Below, piece after piece: positions 39 to 32,719 of a DNA stretch of 52,293 nucleotides (position 1 is the first letter of the stretch; each line of letters starts with the position of its first letter). The notes below the pieces were generated by a model. It saw only the letters and a list, made by a program, of their open reading frames with translations. It made no database searches and had not been told where the DNA came from. Source of the stretch: a virus (lineage: Duplodnaviria; Caudoviricetes); IMG/VR virus record IMGVR_UViG_3300022876_000006, positions 1-52,293 of that record. One strand, written 5' to 3'. The translations under genes and the position numbers were made by a program.

Positions 39-126
39 GGAGGTGTGGCCGAGTGGTTTAAGGCAACGGTCTTGAAAACCGTCGACTGTAACAGGTCCAT
101 GAGTTCGAATCCCATCGCCTCCGCCA
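39..126 (+). tRNA. tRNA-Ser (anticodon TGA), integration target
   Basis: GGAGGTG/CGCCTCC acceptor stem, D-loop AGTGGTTTAA, anticodon arm ACGGT-CTTGAAA-ACCGT, long variable arm, TTCGAAT T-loop, 3' GCCA. Confidence 0.95.
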
Positions 127-28379: not shown

Positions 28380-28979
28380 TCAGGCGTCCTTCGATAGTTC
28401 GTCCATCATCTTCGAGAGTTCGTCGGCGTCGTCCGTCTTCTCCTTCTCGTCCAGGCCAAATGCCTGACGCTCCAGAACCTGCAGGTTCTTCATTGCAGAG
28501 GAAAGCTGGAACAGTGTTTTGGAATTGCTGGGCAGCGCTACGGCGGCGAGCATCGAGGCCCGACGAATGCCGTTGTTGTCTTCGGAGGTTTCATCTTCGA
28601 TCGCGTCTTCGATCTCTTCGCGGCGCTGGATGGTGGTCATCAGATCATCCATCAGCAGGTTCGCAAGAATTGTCGCCTTGCGAATGTCGCGACGGTGACT
28701 GCGAACCACCCGGGCGCCTTCCTCTGCCGCCTCTTCGATGATCTCGGCGTCGAGTTCGCAGTTCGCGCCTTGGTCGTTGCGAACCTCTCCGCGAACCAGC
28801 TTGCTGCGAACCTCTTTGCGCACCTGGTCAGAAAGGTCTCTCGCCCATCCAAGGGCTTTGGCTTTCTTCCTGATCGCGGTATCACTCACACCCTGGCGCT
28901 CAGCGATGGTTCTAATGGAAAGCGAACCGGCCCGGTAGGCTCGTTCGATCGCCTCCCAGTCGGGTTGCTTGGTTGTCAT
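28380..28979 (-). CDS. Terminase small subunit
   Basis: N-terminal HTH DWEAIERAYRAG.LSIRTIAERQGVSDTAIRKKAK..GW; adjacent to TerL. Confidence 0.85.
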   Translation of the reverse strand: MTTKQPDWEAIERAYRAGSLSIRTIAERQGVSDTAIRKKAKALGWARDLSDQVRKEVRSKLVRGEVRNDQGANCELDAEIIEEAAEEGARVVRSHRRDIRKATILANLLMDDLMTTIQRREEIEDAIEDETSEDNNGIRRASMLAAVALPSNSKTLFQLSSAMKNLQVLERQAFGLDEKEKTDDADELSKMMDELSKDA

Positions 28980-29916: not shown

Positions 29917-30237
29917 TTACTGACTGACCCGATCCACCGCTTCGAGCGCCTTGTCCGCCGCTTGTGTGGCAGTGGTTGCGGCCTTCGAAGCCTTTTCTGC
30001 TGCAGTGCCGGTCTTCCGGGTCAATTCATCCAGGCGCTGGTCCCGCTCATTCATGGCGGTGGCGTACGCGCTGCGGATCTCCTCGACCTGCTTCGCCTGC
30101 TTCTCGGCAAGCGACCAGTAGCAGGCCTGATAACCCAGCACCGTGCCGCCGGCGACCAGAACAATGGCGATCGCCCAAACTTCTGCCCGGCGCCACCAGC
30201 GGCGAGCAATGAATTCCATCGCGCATCTGTCCATCAC
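29917..30237 (-). CDS. TM plus coiled-coil protein (lysis-associated?)
   Basis: Single TM then Ala/Lys-rich helix; coupled to upstream gene. Confidence 0.75.
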   Translation of the reverse strand: MMDRCAMEFIARRWWRRAEVWAIAIVLVAGGTVLGYQACYWSLAEKQAKQVEEIRSAYATAMNERDQRLDELTRKTGTAAEKASKAATTATQAADKALEAVDRVSQ

Positions 30238-30605
30238 ACAGCACCTCCGAGCTTGTTCCGCAGGCGGGTGATCTCGTCGCTCTGCAGGGTCACTCGCTCC
30301 GTGAGTTGGGCGACCTGGCTGGTCAGCGCTTCAATCTTCCCTTCCATGCGGCCAACCGAAGCGGCCAGGTCGTTGCGCTCTTTCGCGAACTGATCGGCGC
30401 GGGCCTCCGCTTCCTTCCGGGCGGTCCGTTCCGAGTCGAGCAGCTCATTGAGGCGGCGAACGGTGCCGATATCGGCGTTGTCCATTGCCCGGTCTGCGGC
30501 ATCCTTCGAGAGGAATTTCCGCAACCACAGTAGCCCGCCGAGTATCACCGTGGCACTACCGCCCAGCCAGGTAGCTGTGCCTGGGCCGAGGTCAGTAGGA
30601 TCCAT
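30234..30605 (-). CDS. Putative holin-like protein (N-terminal TM plus coiled coil)
   Basis: First late gene after Q; WLGGSATVILGGLLWLRK; function inferred from position. Confidence 0.6.
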   Translation of the reverse strand: MDPTDLGPGTATWLGGSATVILGGLLWLRKFLSKDAADRAMDNADIGTVRRLNELLDSERTARKEAEARADQFAKERNDLAASVGRMEGKIEALTSQVAQLTERVTLQSDEITRLRNKLGGAV

Positions 30606-30674
30606 CGTCGCTCCATGAATAATTGGCCCCGCTGCACTCCCAGCTCGGAGCTATGGGTGTGGGGAGCCGAAAAC

Positions 30675-30702
30675 GAAAAAGCCCCTGCAAGTGCAGAGGC
30701 CC
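30675..30702 (-). terminator. Terminator-like hairpin closing the late-leader RNA
   Basis: GCCTCTGCA-CT-TGCAGGGGC-TTTTT on the minus strand. Confidence 0.6.
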
Positions 30703-30708
30703 TGAATA

Positions 30709-30908
30709 GGTGCGCTCGTCTTTCCGAGCTGTCTGCCAAAGACCTTCTCAACGTCGACGCCCCTATGCATCGATCTCACTGATCCAGTCTCGCGCCACCC
30801 CGAAAGCAAGTTTGAGGTCAGGGTGCGCGGGCTGCCGGTGTTGATTCCGTACGTCGCACTATCCGGCTATCGACGTCCAGGCTTCCCGAGGGCTGTCCTG
30901 GCTACAGG
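30709..30908 (-). ncRNA. Candidate structured ncRNA in the late leader
   Basis: Non-coding; at least 6 hand-identified stems including long-range ACGUCGA/UCGACGU. Confidence 0.55.
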
Positions 30909-30923
30909 TAAATTCGAGGCAAT

Positions 30924-30951
30924 AAAAAACCCGGCACGATGGCCGGGTTTC
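30924..30951 (-). terminator. tR'-like terminator
   Basis: AAACCCGGC-loop-GCCGGGTTTTTT. Confidence 0.75.
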
Positions 30952-30992
30952 GTTTGTCAGTCCTACACACGCAGGAATGACAGGATGGGGAA

Positions 30993-31021
30993 ATAATCGG
31001 ACATGCGGACATCAATTGCAA
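30993..31021 (-). promoter_or_regulatory. Candidate late promoter pR'
   Basis: -35 TTGCAA, 17-bp spacer, -10 GATTAT, just downstream of the Q-like gene and upstream of tR'. Confidence 0.55.
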
Positions 31022-31041
31022 GCCCTTTTGAGGGACTCTTT

Positions 31042-31713
31042 TCAGGCCGCTTCGCTGGTCAGCACCTCCGCCTCTTCCAGAAGCGATTGAGCCTCCACCA
31101 ACGCCTCGTCAACCAGCTTCTCCAGCGCCCCTTTGATCGCCTGGTTCCAGCGGCGGTAAGTGCGTTCGGTCAGCCCCTGGTTGTCCCAAGTGTTCATGTC
31201 GTAGTTTGAGTCGGCGAGGACGATCATGTCGCTCGATCGCGTCTCTGCTTTCTGCTGTGAGTGCTGGTTTGCCCTGGCCACGGCCAACTGCGCCGCGTCG
31301 TTGCGCCAGCCCCACTTCTCCTCGTCGTCACGGCGCTCAGGCACAGGAGCCTTCACAGCCTCTCGACGCACACCCTTCACCTGCGGAATTGCCCACACAG
31401 TCACAGCCTTCTGGGTGAACAGCATCGGCGCAGGGCTGTCCAGCACCGAGATCAGGCGGCCGATCGACTCAACCTTACGCCCCTTGTGCGTGCTGTACTT
31501 CGCGGTAAGCGCGTTCCAGTGTCGCGGCGAAAGCTGGGCGTGCAGCACCTTGTGAACCATGCAGTCGATCAGCAGCGCGGCGTCCTTGCCGGTGATCTCG
31601 CCCTTGAGCTTGCTGGTCTGCACCTTGGGCTCGAAGTCGCAGCCGCCGGCGCTGTTGATGGTCTCGGCCGCCAAAGCACGAACGACCGCCGAAATTACGT
31701 TGTGGTAGATCAT
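31042..31713 (-). CDS. Late antiterminator Q-like protein
   Basis: Last early-right gene after ninG; C-terminal HTH-like LTERTYRRW; followed by promoter and terminator. Confidence 0.65.
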   Translation of the reverse strand: MIYHNVISAVVRALAAETINSAGGCDFEPKVQTSKLKGEITGKDAALLIDCMVHKVLHAQLSPRHWNALTAKYSTHKGRKVESIGRLISVLDSPAPMLFTQKAVTVWAIPQVKGVRREAVKAPVPERRDDEEKWGWRNDAAQLAVARANQHSQQKAETRSSDMIVLADSNYDMNTWDNQGLTERTYRRWNQAIKGALEKLVDEALVEAQSLLEEAEVLTSEAA

Positions 31714-32321
31714 GCTGCAGCCCTCTTCAGTTCGCGGGTCTTGGCCCGGTATTCGGCCTTGATGGTTTTGATTTCTTCGACGGTGTACTTGCGGGGCTCA
31801 TGAGGCCCTTCGAGCCAAGCCACCTTGTCGGCGCCGATGCGCTGCACCAACCGAATGCGGTACTCGACCGCGTTGCCGGACAAGTTGCGGTTGCACTTCA
31901 CGCACTGCCGGTGGATGTTCAGCGGCTCGAAGCGCAGCTCCGGACAGGCGCCGACGGATCGGTAATGGCCGGCGTCCCAGCGGCTGCCGGTAATCAGGTC
32001 ACTGTCGTTCGGCATTGAGTCGCAGCTGATGCACGGCAGGTGCGCATCACGCAGGCGGACATACTCGTTCACCGCCGCCTGGGCTTCGCGCAGGTGGTCA
32101 GCCCTGGTCTTCAGCTTCTCTTTGCGGACTTTGATCTCTCGGCGATCACGCTGGGCGATCGCCTTCTTTGCCTTCTGCTCGTTCCGGGGCGCGTCCTTCA
32201 GCGCGCAGGCTGGACTGCACACTGCCTGACCCAAACGCTGAGGGACGAATGAGGCCCCGCAGGAGGCAACGCGGCATTTCTTCGGCTTGGGCGCCTTCTT
32301 TTCCTTGATGGCAGTCCGCAT
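31710..32321 (-). CDS. ninG: NinG/Rap recombination endonuclease
   Basis: YVRLRD..LPCISC, WDAGHYRSVGA.PELRF...NIHRQCVKCN..LSGN. Confidence 0.92.
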   Translation of the reverse strand: MRTAIKEKKAPKPKKCRVASCGASFVPQRLGQAVCSPACALKDAPRNEQKAKKAIAQRDRREIKVRKEKLKTRADHLREAQAAVNEYVRLRDAHLPCISCDSMPNDSDLITGSRWDAGHYRSVGACPELRFEPLNIHRQCVKCNRNLSGNAVEYRIRLVQRIGADKVAWLEGPHEPRKYTVEEIKTIKAEYRAKTRELKRAAA

Positions 32322-32719
32322 CAGTAGCGCCCTCCCCACTTGTCTTGCTCAGTCCAGCGCACGCCATGCTCGGCGCCGAAGGCATGCATCAGCTCGAACA
32401 GATCGCTGAACCACTTCTGCGACTGCTTGCGGGTCGATACAGCCATCACGACGAAGCCACCGTCGAGACCTGGCTCCGCGCGCTGCTTCTCCAGCGAGGC
32501 ACTGAAAAGGCACTTCCAGTCCTCGTCGCTGAGCTTCTTGCCGTACCAGATCACCTGGTTGGAGACGTCCTTGAGCATTGCCCACATCTTCCGATTGCAG
32601 ACGTCAGGGCGCTTCTCGTCCTTGATGACGACGATCTTGGGTTTGGTGAAGTCGGTGGCGTGCAGGACACCCATCAGACGGCTGATATCGCGCTGGCTGC
32701 GGATTGCGAACTCGTTCAT
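32321..32719 (-). CDS. ninB: NinB recombination protein
   Basis: NRKMWAMLKDVSNQVIWYG..LSDEDWK...STRK...AFGAEHGVRW. Confidence 0.9.
   Translation of the reverse strand: MNEFAIRSQRDISRLMGVLHATDFTKPKIVVIKDEKRPDVCNRKMWAMLKDVSNQVIWYGKKLSDEDWKCLFSASLEKQRAEPGLDGGFVVMAVSTRKQSQKWFSDLFELMHAFGAEHGVRWTEQDKWGGRY

Follow-up and report, generated by a model that had tools for sequence, protein, structure and literature searches.

What is encoded between two terminator-like hairpins in the late leader of a Caudoviricetes virus, and what could it do there? The question was raised by record IMGVR_UViG_3300022876_000006, of which the whole 52,293-nucleotide stretch was analysed and is referred to as the window. 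A sequence-only reading had proposed that positions 30709-30908 of the window give rise, from the minus strand, to a structured RNA of about 200 nt.

Position of the element in the late leader

The genes identified in the window are NinB, NinG, phrog_3412, a hol-like gene and the small terminase subunit, and its sole tRNA is at 39-123 (+). The element is located downstream of NinG and of the gene at the Q position. The latter encodes a 223-aa protein that has no Pfam family and falls into a PHROG of unknown function. Its AlphaFold2 model, based on 27 homologs, has a mean pLDDT of 46.9 and a pTM of 0.31 and is too poor for a fold search; a Q-like role of the protein is thus putative. The element is flanked by the following features.

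30993..31021 (-): promoter-like site read by eye, TTGCAA, 17-nt spacer, GATTAT
30952..30990 (-): conserved leader hairpin between promoter-like site and first terminator, -14.6 kcal/mol, z -4.7
30924..30951 (-): upstream intrinsic terminator-like hairpin (tR') with U run; fold of 30921-30955, -16.5 kcal/mol, z -4.1
30909..30920 (-): A/U-rich spacer R-A-W-U-U-Y-A-C preceding the RNA
30668..30703 (-): downstream intrinsic terminator-like hairpin with U-rich tail; fold of 30668-30708, -17.1 kcal/mol, z -4.9

The promoter-like site directly follows the stop of the Q-position gene. It agrees with the consensus at 8 of 12 positions, which is below the threshold of the promoter scan, and the relatives L133 and L192 have better -35 hexamers at the same place; we infer that it may serve as a promoter. 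For the element, the promoter scan reported none. The sequence block of the leader hairpin recurs in L133, L192 and L002. The simple terminator scan did not call the hairpin at 30924..30951, to which several Rfam sRNA models align their own terminator below threshold; it did call the downstream hairpin, at 30703-30678. The folding energies, together with the scan for the downstream one, support both hairpins as real. The proposed placement in the leader, between the Q-position gene and the lysis/packaging genes and between two terminators, is thereby supported.

The element belongs to the Proteo-phage-1 family

Rfam cmscan identified a match to RF03044 (Proteo-phage-1) at 30830-30907 (-), with a score of 75.9 bits against a gathering score of 42 bits and an E-value of 4.3e-12. 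The match covers model positions 1-82 of 82 and is not truncated, which establishes family membership for the 5′ 78 nt of the element. The whole-element covariance model, R1, has a single match in the window, at 30705-30908 (-), with 242 bits. Hence, a structured RNA is present on the minus strand where it had been proposed, and the statement that it could be assigned to no known family fails on the cmscan result. We consider the element as a whole, about 200 nt in length, almost certainly a member of this family.

RF03044 is a catalogued family without assigned function, which Rfam files under type 'Gene; sRNA'. Proteo-phage-1 is reportedly among the 224 candidate RNAs of Weinberg et al. from 2017. 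A literature search by family name and accession retrieved no paper naming 'Proteo-phage-1' or 'RF03044', and two conserved 12-13-mers of the element retrieved nothing relevant; the motif is not discussed in the passages of the PMC5737381 main text that a term search identified. Within 50,697 phage records, blastn of the region found the RNA in phiAH14a only (two records), where the current annotation covers the RNA region with a reverse-strand ORF that is probably spurious.

Covariation supports an RNA on the minus strand

Two alignments of relatives were inspected: A3, in which 71 relatives are aligned to model R1, and A1, a MAFFT alignment of 92 distinct relatives. In A3, 96.8% of the cells are paired, compared with 27-48% in slid controls, and 27 of the 39 pairs undergo compensatory change. 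The compensatory cells number 234 against a shuffled mean of 63, a count reached in 0 of 500 shuffles. In A1, compensatory change occurs in 19 of 53 pairs, with 143 cells against 37 and again 0 of 500 shuffles as high. The folding energy of the single sequence is not significant (z -1.39; 17 of 200 shuffles fold as well), and the support for the structure thus comes from the covarying homologs, not from thermodynamics. G-U pairs are retained in the helices, one pair of helix P4 being U-G in 92 of 92 rows of A1. As these pairs would become A-C mismatches on the opposite strand, the RNA strand is the minus strand.

The weak folding z-score, and the mosaic joints at which unlike flanking modules meet at the element, would suit a signal in the DNA itself (a site of recombination or protein binding) or a chance structure in a G+C-rich spacer. 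Neither would account for compensatory change in more than two thirds of the A3 pairs, for G-U pairs kept on one strand only, or for the match to a curated RNA family (E 4e-12). By the covariation counts this explanation is close to refuted, and we regard it as extremely improbable.

The earlier description of the stretch as lacking a credible ORF is consistent with the alignment, in which 540 of 541 gap runs (A1) have a length not divisible by three. In many copies, however, one reading frame stays open throughout the slice, which is common in DNA of high G+C content. When genome contigs were scanned with a loose pattern, most matches were chance ones in G+C-rich genomes, and nhmmer on the pattern-scan loci gave 30 matches in 29 of 120 loci. 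Conservation of a non-coding structured RNA is supported by both the homologs and their covariation.

The 5′ domain consists of two pseudoknotted hairpins

30830..30907 (-): 5′ domain, RF03044 Proteo-phage-1, from cmscan and pair counts
30897-30901 with 30877-30881 (-): P1 helix, from pair counts
30891-30892 with 30885-30886 (-): inner hairpin of hairpin 1, from pair counts
30871-30876 with 30851-30856 (-): P2 helix, from pair counts
30863-30867 with 30834-30838 (-): loop-tail pseudoknot, 100% paired, variation near nil
30904-30907 with 30893-30896 (-): candidate 5′ pseudoknot S1, 91.4% paired, 3 of 4 pairs compensatory

The 5′ domain is built of two consecutive pseudoknotted hairpins. Hairpin 1 has the internal loop and the small inner hairpin of RF03044. 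Its P1 helix (CCAGG/CCUGG) is 98.3-98.7% paired in A3 and A1 and changes from A-U to G-C in 12 of 71 rows; its inner CC/GG pairs are 96.7-100% paired in the two alignments. Hairpin 2, also a feature of RF03044, starts one nucleotide past hairpin 1 and is 96.0% paired in A3, with 3 of 6 pairs compensatory. The letters of its loop, AGCCGG..AGUGC, are invariant, but they were fixed by the homolog search patterns. The 3′ tail of RF03044, AACaCCGGCAGCC, is present and could pair with the hairpin-2 loop. This loop-tail pairing (GCCGG/CCGGC) is 100% paired, with three of its five pairs never varying and two varying on one side, and the search patterns fixed these letters as well; due to the invariance, covariation does not test it. 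A third tertiary pairing, between AUAGUG of the hairpin-2 loop and the 3′ tail, has a mean duplex energy of -3.98 kcal/mol, compared with -2.45 kcal/mol for shuffled tails and -2.77 kcal/mol for windows 60 nt further on. Duplexes of -5 kcal/mol or below make up 42%, versus 8% and 10% in the controls. As these values come from 50 distinct loop/tail pairs in rows that are not independent, the third pairing is suggestive only.

Both hairpins, the AGCCGG..AGUGC loop and the AACACCGGCAGCC tail are common to RF03044 and the element, and both occur in proteobacterial phage. They differ in that the 4-bp pairing S1 of the 5′ end, which forms a pseudoknot with hairpin 1 and is supported here, is missing from the structure line of RF03044.

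A compact pseudoknotted core with many invariant unpaired nucleotides brings to mind a self-cleaving or self-processing ribozyme that would separate the leader, a tRNA or the upstream mRNA from the late transcript. Sharply bounded conservation on both sides would fit, as would a 5′ boundary at a fixed 6-9 nt past the 3′ ends of tRNAs in 8 contexts. We scanned 30400-31300 against Rfam with E up to 10, and no ribozyme family matched: hammerhead, HDV-like, twister, twister-sister, pistol, hatchet and glmS were absent from the 10 matches, the sole match on the element being RF03044. The strand order of two consecutive H-type pseudoknots is also unlike the nested double pseudoknots familiar from HDV-like and glmS ribozymes. 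A ribozyme is therefore improbable in our judgement.

The 3′ domain lies beyond the Rfam model

30791..30829 (-): P3 hairpin, CGCGCACCCU ... GGGGUGGCGCG, first helix beyond the Rfam model
30741..30789 (-): P4, long irregular hairpin including an AGA bulge
30786-30789 with 30741-30744 (-): P4 outer helix, 82.3% paired, 3 of 4 pairs compensatory
30777-30781 with 30749-30753 (-): P4 middle helix CAGUG/CGUUG, 93.7% paired, 3 of 5 pairs compensatory
30767-30773 with 30754-30760 (-): P4 inner helix UCGAUGC/GCGUCGA, 98.5-99.7% paired, U-A to C-G swaps
30735..30737 (-): GGC, pairable with GCC at 30830-30832, could close a junction around P3 and P4 (RNAalifold)
30714..30729 (-): P5 hairpin GCUCG-GAAAGA-CGAGC with conserved loop, from pair counts
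30705..30713 (-): 3′ tail GCACCUAUU, end of conservation; homologs diverge beyond it regardless of what follows

The RF03044 model stops at 30830. The 3′ part of about 120 nt outside it (30709-30829) adds P3, P4 and P5 and is conserved and covarying in more than 100 relatives. P3 is 96.1% paired in A3, where all 10 of its pairs changed on both sides, and 98.6% paired in A1, with 5 of 10 changed. P5 is 99.1% paired in A3, with 3 of 5 pairs and 54 cells compensatory. The GGC/GCC pairing is 99% paired and invariant, and covariation consequently cannot test the closure of the junction. With a possible Rsm/CsrA-sponge reading in mind, conservation of the trinucleotide GGA was inspected by eye; it is family-wide in the GGAC junction and the P5 loop only.

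A model of the 3′ domain, R2, matched at 33 places distributed over 27 of the 151 Pseudomonas genomes, and all 33 fall inside places found by the whole-element model R1. Hence, the two domains form one RNA. The 3′ domain is lineage-specific and missing from the Rfam model. A broader reading would take Proteo-phage-1 as a catalytic or protein-binding core (the 5′ double-pseudoknot domain plus P3) with interchangeable 3′ domains: P4-P5 here and, in another Pseudomonas phage group, a long stem enclosing a hypervariable insert of 49-195 nt that carries tRNA-arm-like pieces. Such RNAs would form a class of widespread phage RNAs made together with phage tRNAs. They would have tRNA, or host machinery related to translation, as their target, or would counter a host defence aimed at it. 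We hold this reading to be distinctly unlikely.

The eight stems drawn by hand in the sequence-only reading fared unevenly under pair counts and the shuffle test. Five hold in A1: the P1 stem (98.7% paired), the inner CC/GG stem (96.7%), the invariant GCCGG/CCGGC stem (beyond the reach of covariation), CGCGCACCC.../...GGGUGGCGCG (98.6%, 5 of 10 pairs compensatory) and GCUCG/CGAGC (95.6%, 3 of 5 pairs compensatory). The long-range helix ACGUCGA/UCGACGU, GAUC/GAUC and GUCU/AGAC do not. Together they are 85.2% paired versus a shuffled mean of 85.3%, with 407 of 500 shuffles at least as high, and they are rejected as no better than shuffled columns. The junction thought to be closed by the long-range helix accordingly lacks covariation support; this helix competes with two supported ones, hairpin 2 of Rfam and UCGAUGC/GCGUCGA.

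Genomic contexts of the relatives

The recognised flanking genes of the relatives are all on the strand of the element: NinG at 83 loci, phrog_3412 at 44 and the small terminase subunit at 25. The genes downstream vary among loci, being hol-like at 5, orf132 at 28 and the small terminase subunit at 25. The upstream flank was long enough in 118 distinct contexts. A terminator-like hairpin is present in 57 of them, a tRNA gene ending 6-9 nt upstream of the element (ARAGORN) in 8, and neither in 53; the counts are approximate, as the crude terminator detector misses some obvious hairpins (e.g. at L099). In several of the 53, a stop codon lies no more than 10 nt from the element. Two further contexts carry a tRNA about 70 nt downstream. 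The earlier remark that lambdoid phages place RNAs such as tRNAs at this position is borne out by these tRNA genes. The spacer ahead of the RNA has at least three consecutive A/T in 77 of 80 distinct upstream flanks, independent of the sequence further upstream, and is possibly a 5′ processing site.

On the downstream side, 64 of 111 testable contexts have a terminator-like hairpin within 75 nt. A conserved convergent gene comes to its end no more than 5 nt from the 3′ end of the element at 13 of the 129 loci; PHROG scans of this gene and of two upstream small ORFs returned no function. At 12 genome loci the element is in a non-phage chromosomal locus, 8 nt past a metallothionein gene, followed by only a weak hairpin and a long inverted repeat. 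Some prophages have two copies, each before a terminator (L121). The element is a sharply bounded, portable module for which no promoter was found.

These contexts bear on a cis-acting leader RNA that would set read-through at the second terminator into the lysis/packaging genes, either by acting on the elongating polymerase (processive antitermination) or by alternative pairing with the terminator. The co-orientation with the operon at every locus and the downstream hairpins (64/111) fit such a leader as well as they fit a passenger gene. The strong terminator directly downstream here, the two-copy prophages and the core of two hairpins one nucleotide apart, which resembles the layout of HK022 put, speak for it. 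Yet the element is past the first terminator, where an arriving polymerase is already terminator-resistant or has leaked through. No terminator was detected in 47 of the 111 testable contexts, the convergent gene abuts the 3′ end at the 13 loci, and the chromosomal copies follow the metallothionein gene and precede only the weak hairpin and repeat. No conserved sequence was found that would compete with the terminator stem, whose loop-proximal half varies freely. We consider the leader unlikely.

A cis-acting stability element could block exonucleases or RNase E entry, as a 3′ cap for the upstream mRNA or tRNA or a 5′ cap for the downstream late mRNA. Occurrence directly past stop codons, tRNAs and terminators and before operons agrees with this, and so does the 3′-UTR-like position of the chromosomal copies. 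The invariant unpaired positions and the two-domain pseudoknotted architecture far exceed the needs of a nuclease barrier, though, and simple hairpins already flank the element; there is little probability that this is its role.

Weak hints of a transcript

Contigs assembled from soil metatranscriptomes of different studies cover 30712-30909, 30710-30878 and 30667-30943; the ends at 30710 and 30712 are those of two RNA contigs of separate studies. The same kind of run also yielded contigs that extend across the boundaries of the element (30492-30959). These runs are assembled contigs, from which ends, strand and level are not readable and in which DNA carry-over is possible, and they give weak hints of a discrete transcript. 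The depths of 174x and 102x recorded over 30819-30913 stem from related-phage contigs continuing into unlike sequence and are uninformative on expression of the element. Late expression would follow from its position.

Comparison with known systems

The put RNAs of HK022 are cis-acting processive antitermination RNAs with a two-stem layout. With these the element shares the two-hairpin core, the one-nucleotide linker and the lambdoid leader upstream of a terminator. It differs in following a terminator instead of coming straight after a promoter, and in being found as well behind tRNAs and stop codons, ahead of convergent genes and at a chromosomal locus. Put-type placement, after a promoter and ahead of the overridden terminators, is not seen here, as the strong terminator hairpin at 30924-30951 separates the RNA from the promoter-like site. 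Lambda 6S resembles this locus in its promoter-like site, short structured leader and first terminator (31021-30924), but the element comes after that terminator as a separate and far more conserved module.

In Shiga-toxin lambdoid phages, tRNAs are located downstream of the late terminator, and the T4 tRNA cluster includes stable RNAs of unknown function. The element shares with phage tRNAs and stable RNAs the slot from the Q-position gene to the lysis genes, and the promoter scan detected none belonging to it. In 129 oriented loci, ARAGORN placed tRNAs beside the element and never inside it, and the Rfam tRNA model had no match at the element. GOLLD and ROOL also occur near tRNAs and in prophages, according to PMC5737381; the element is much smaller, and the Rfam scan shows no relation to either. 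A riboswitch would sit in the 5′ UTR of a coherent gene set, which is not the case here, because the downstream genes differ, a convergent gene follows at 13 loci and the chromosomal copies follow a metallothionein gene.

A passenger RNA gene as the preferred reading

We favour, tentatively and at somewhat less than even probability, a passenger RNA gene that is made by read-through only and trimmed to a stable RNA acting in trans. The convergent gene at 13 of 129 loci and the 12 chromosomal loci argue that the element is not tied to a downstream co-directional gene. Such a gene would have no promoter of its own. Late in infection, polymerase starting from the promoter-like site behind the Q-position gene would pass the first terminator and make the RNA, which would take the compact two-domain fold. 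It may then be excised at its A/U-rich single-stranded flanks, or acquire its 3′ end at the second terminator. The stable product would act in trans, its invariant unpaired nucleotides binding a conserved host or phage macromolecule. Family membership, structure, strand, conservation and genomic contexts are shown by the data, and the timing, processing, action in trans and binding partner are what we infer.

The functional unit in Pseudomonas phages is thus larger than the 82-nt motif of Rfam, comprising about 200 nt in two domains, and the extra 120 nt have covariation support as good as the catalogued part. A better model for detecting and annotating the family results, as do defined boundaries for experiments. 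Although the function is not revealed here, phiAH14a and its Antarctic Pseudomonas host are a non-pathogenic pair in which that of a widespread orphan phage RNA could be tested. The element behaves as a portable RNA gene that would be expressed by read-through beside tRNA genes in the late leader, and the same full-length RNA has become fixed in a non-phage chromosomal locus of one Pseudomonas group.

Family identity

Rfam cmscan of the whole window gave two matches above the gathering score, a tRNA at 39-123 (+) and RF03044 (Proteo-phage-1) at 30830-30907 (-). The latter match spans the full model (positions 1-82 of 82) with a score of 75.9 bits, the cut-off being 42 (E 4.3e-12). When 30400-31300 was scanned permissively (E up to 10), 10 matches came back; RF03044 alone passes its cut-off, and none falls on 30709-30829 (minus strand). 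Hence, a catalogued motif makes up the first 78 nt of the 200-nt candidate, and its other ~120 nt are covered by no Rfam model. The sequence-only reading had been unable to assign the RNA to a known family; for the 5' 78 nt, that assignment is now RF03044. Searches on 'Proteo-phage-1' and 'RF03044' found no paper with either name, a term search of the discovery paper from 2017 (PMC5737381, main text) shows no mention of the motif, and no function for RF03044 was found on record in the literature searched. The element belongs to a known, functionally orphan family and is not a new class. The tRNA gene (RF00005, 56.1 bits) opens the virus record; it may belong to an attachment site or else be one of the phage's own tRNAs.

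Gene neighbourhood and leader

The window spans a complete virus record in IMG/VR (52,293 bases) and has the following features around the element.

32321-32719, minus strand: NinB
31710-32339, minus strand: NinG
31042-31713, minus strand: 223-aa protein, PHROG 3412 (function not assigned in PHROG)
31021-30993, minus strand: promoter-like site TTGCAA-17-GATTAT, found by eye
3' of the promoter-like site, minus strand: leader hairpin, -14.6 kcal/mol
30951-30924, minus strand: strong hairpin then U run, -16.5 kcal/mol, upstream of the element (first terminator)
30703-30668, minus strand: second hairpin with U-rich tail, -17.1 kcal/mol, downstream of the element (second terminator)
30234-30605, minus strand: hol-like protein
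Downstream of the hol-like gene, minus strand: Rz-like ORF, then more small ORFs
28380-28979, minus strand: small terminase subunit

Read on the minus strand, a gap of 436 nt separates the 223-aa gene from the hol-like gene. The whole gap is common to the window and its nearest named relative, Pseudomonas phage phiAH14a, with 83% identity. In phiAH14a the RNA is unannotated and its region carries a reverse-strand hypothetical protein, AH14a_p55 (locus L225 3534-4064, KU708004.1 26084-26614), which is probably a spurious ORF. The 223-aa protein, whose gene stands in the Q position, matched no Pfam family. At E <= 1e-5 its homologs number 972, and among the best 120 of the 972 the named ones are all from Pseudomonas and annotated hypothetical or 'phage-like'; its AlphaFold model (mean pLDDT 46.9) is too poor for use.

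The leader with two terminator-like hairpins, described earlier from sequence, was right. A promoter scan found none, the TTGCAA-17-GATTAT site falling under its threshold, and no promoter of the element's own was found. The promoter-like site, the conserved leader hairpin, and the first terminator (30952-31021, minus) would together yield a ~65-nt transcript, similar to the short RNA that lambdoid phages make from their late leader. This leader block is also present in three other loci (L133, L192, and L002).

Relatives and secondary structure

A pattern search of IMG/VR with the conserved loop and tail gave 103 stretches with 96 distinct cores. A looser pattern on genome contigs gave at least 120 stretches, most of them chance matches in G+C-rich genomes; an nhmmer profile search based on the viral copies retained 30 hits among these, in 29 loci. 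A third pattern, with the GATAAGCCGG loop variant, gave 62 further viral loci. In the IMG/VR set, conservation spans the whole 200 nt in nearly all copies and ends abruptly past GCGCACCUAUU irrespective of the downstream sequence. Alignment A1 is a MAFFT alignment of 92 distinct copies, with L065 and L090 left out for their divergent 3' parts. Covariance model R1, for the whole element, was built from 40 diverse copies, and alignment A3 holds 71 matches aligned to R1, divergent genome copies included. Being fitted to R1, A3 is biased towards the structure; A1 is unfitted and agrees with it.

Mutual-information and helix scans gave the helix model below, in which RNA position i equals window coordinate 30909 - i.

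2-5 / 13-16: S1
8-12 / 28-32: P1
17-18 / 23-24: inner hairpin
33-38 / 53-58: P2
42-46 / 71-75: loop-tail pseudoknot
77-79 / 172-174: junction helix
80-89 / 108-118: P3
120-123 / 165-168: P4 outer
128-132 / 156-160: P4 middle, AGA bulge next
136-142 / 149-155: P4 inner
180-184 / 191-195: P5, loop GAAAGA

The structured RNA proposed on the minus strand was borne out by covariation among its homologs. On A1, 93.0% of cells are paired versus 89.8% after shuffling, two-sided change occurs in 19 of 53 pairs versus 12.5, and compensatory cells number 143 versus 37.0, a value reached in 0 of 500 shuffles; these counts take in the outer P4 helix one column off register (33% paired). On the fitted A3, the corresponding values are 96.8% versus 89.3% paired, 27 of 39 compensatory pairs versus 16.9, and 234 compensatory cells versus 63.3 (0 of 500 shuffles as high). 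Slid controls are paired at 29-40% on A1 and 27-48% on A3. RNAalifold on A1 gave 47 pairs, 13 with compensatory change. P3 shows both-sided change in 10 of 10 pairs on A3, while S1 (91.4% paired) and the outer P4 helix (82.3%) are each compensatory in three of four pairs. The loop-tail pseudoknot is 100% paired on A3 but invariant, its loop letters being fixed by the search patterns; the junction helix is 99% paired but likewise invariant, so that neither can give a covariation signal. One P4 pair is U-G in all 92 rows of A1, and G-U pairs kept in all rows establish that the RNA strand is minus. Single-sequence folding energy is unremarkable (z -1.39). With compensatory change of this extent, a non-RNA explanation is nearly excluded.

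Five of the eight stems drawn by hand in the sequence-only reading stand, namely CCAGG/CCUGG, the inner CC/GG, GCCGG/CCGGC (consistent, invariant), CGCGCACCC/GGGUGGCGCG, and GCUCG/CGAGC. The other three do not: counted alone on A1, ACGUCGA/UCGACGU, GAUC/GAUC, and GUCU/AGAC are 85.2% paired versus 85.3% shuffled, a level that 407 of 500 shuffles equal or exceed, and have 4 compensatory cells where 4.0 are expected. The long-range ACGUCGA/UCGACGU complementarity arises because a palindromic GUCGAC-type word occurs four times, and both arms of that helix are taken by the covarying P2 and inner P4. A multi-helix junction is probably present, which GCC/GGC, not the long-range helix, would close. 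The hairpin-2 loop AUAGUG (30857-30862, minus) is often complementary to the tail after P5 (30705-30713), also in copies with a different downstream sequence; the energy signal for this possible third tertiary contact is weak.

Constant core and variable 3' part

In 151 sampled Pseudomonas genomes, R1 finds 48 places in 37 genomes, with up to three copies per genome, and R2, a model of the 3' part alone, finds 33 places in 27. By coordinates, all 33 R2 places fall within the 48 R1 places. At one R1 place (149 nt), the 3' domain is accompanied by no more than ~25 nt of the 5' domain; the reverse situation is frequent, 15 places having the core but no P4-P5-type 3' domain. Short copies (the first copy in L121; L204, L127, and L090) retain the core, some with P3 and some without. 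Of the 62 viral loci of the GATAAGCCGG type, 30 are full-length copies (137-207 bits) and 29 form a second group, group B (e.g., L244 675-1000 (+)), which have in common the core, a P3-like hairpin, and GAGAC. The 3' part of group B differs: a long conserved stem surrounds a 49-195-nt insert, unlike between phages and with T-arm-like sequence in some, in which ARAGORN called no tRNA. The only named relative and nearest isolate of group B is Pseudomonas phage PS-1. Taken together, the R1 and R2 places, the short copies, and group B indicate that the Rfam motif is a constant core and that the 3' part varies, P4-P5 of this window being the version of one lineage; P3 probably belongs to the core.

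Locus L121 (5950-7500, +) has two copies 1.2 kb apart. The first consists of the 5' domain only, and both strands of its loop-tail pseudoknot show U-G/G-U changes. The copies bracket two paralogous small genes with a common conserved leader, which looks like a moron inserted through recombination at the RNA.

Genomic context and possible mode of action

The element is patchy in Pseudomonas (37 of 151 species genomes). Elsewhere it is rare: among 151 sampled genomes of the class, RF03044 was found in one, the centre genome itself, a missing match not being proof of absence. In 129 loci searched by tblastn with the window's proteins, all flanking genes recognised are on the RNA's strand: upstream NinG (83 loci), phrog_3412 (44), and NinB (33); downstream orf132 (28), the small terminase subunit (25), and hol-like (5). 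No match was found in 31.

Among 122 distinct upstream contexts, 57 have a terminator-like hairpin in the immediate flank, and in eight a tRNA gene ends 6-9 nt upstream of the RNA; a crude detector found neither in 53, several of which have a stop codon within ~10 nt upstream of the RNA, and four have too little flank. In 77 of 80 distinct flanks, A/U-rich sequence fills the 8 nt preceding the RNA. A self-processing ribozyme, for which the sharp limits of conservation on both sides might speak, is improbable.

On the downstream side, 64 contexts have a terminator-like hairpin within 75 nt and none was detected in 47; the 3'-domain motif is absent in six and flank too short in five. The RNA might control read-through at the second terminator in cis, which the 64 hairpins would suit and the 47 contexts would not; we consider this unlikely. 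In 13 loci (L104 1063-1473 (-) and 12 more), a conserved convergent gene (50-100% full-length identity) stops no more than 5 nt from the RNA 3' end; its 136-aa product has no PHROG match.

Diverged, full-length copies (97-110 bits) lie in a non-phage setting at 12 genome loci: L114, L132 (3784-3977, minus), L137, L143, L148, L153, L166, L168, L177, L181, L207, and L216. The chromosomal copy begins 8 nt past a prokaryotic metallothionein gene (PF02069, E 9e-14), with LysR and Sir2 genes upstream; 3' of it lie a long inverted repeat, a repetitive 130-aa ORF without Pfam match, and a ZIP zinc transporter (PF02535). The copy and metallothionein gene of L153 (1967-2160, minus), titled Leclercia tamurae, are near-identical to those of Pseudomonas loci, possibly through a mislabelled or mixed assembly, or transfer. 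The element is a structured RNA on the operon's strand with sharp module boundaries, located behind a terminator in the window, beside tRNA genes elsewhere, and tied to no particular downstream gene. A role as a stability element is as improbable as a ribozyme.

Part of the stretch appears in six runs recorded as RNA, and four soil metatranscriptomes were compared; all are assembled contigs, uninformative on ends, strand, and level. Exact-match contigs (depth about 2-8) extend across all of the neighbourhood, which places the phage, or its DNA, in the samples. One contig matches 30712-30909 with 199 of its 216 letters, followed by 17 terminator-tail-like letters; in separate studies, entire contigs of 169 and 277 letters cover 30710-30878 and 30667-30943. 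They hint weakly at an RNA species whose limit lies near the 3' end of the element or is set by the two terminators; a further contig, 30492-30959, crosses both boundaries. High-depth contigs (174x, 102x) match only 30819-30913, followed by unlike sequence, and come from related phages.

The reading we tentatively prefer, at somewhat less than even chance, is that the element is a passenger RNA gene, made by read-through, processed or released by a terminator, and acting in trans. It would be transcribed solely through read-through of the first terminator, and late provided that antitermination is exerted by the 223-aa protein or some other factor. Release could occur via processing at the A/U-rich flanks or via the second terminator, and the RNA would then act in trans through its invariant unpaired nucleotides.
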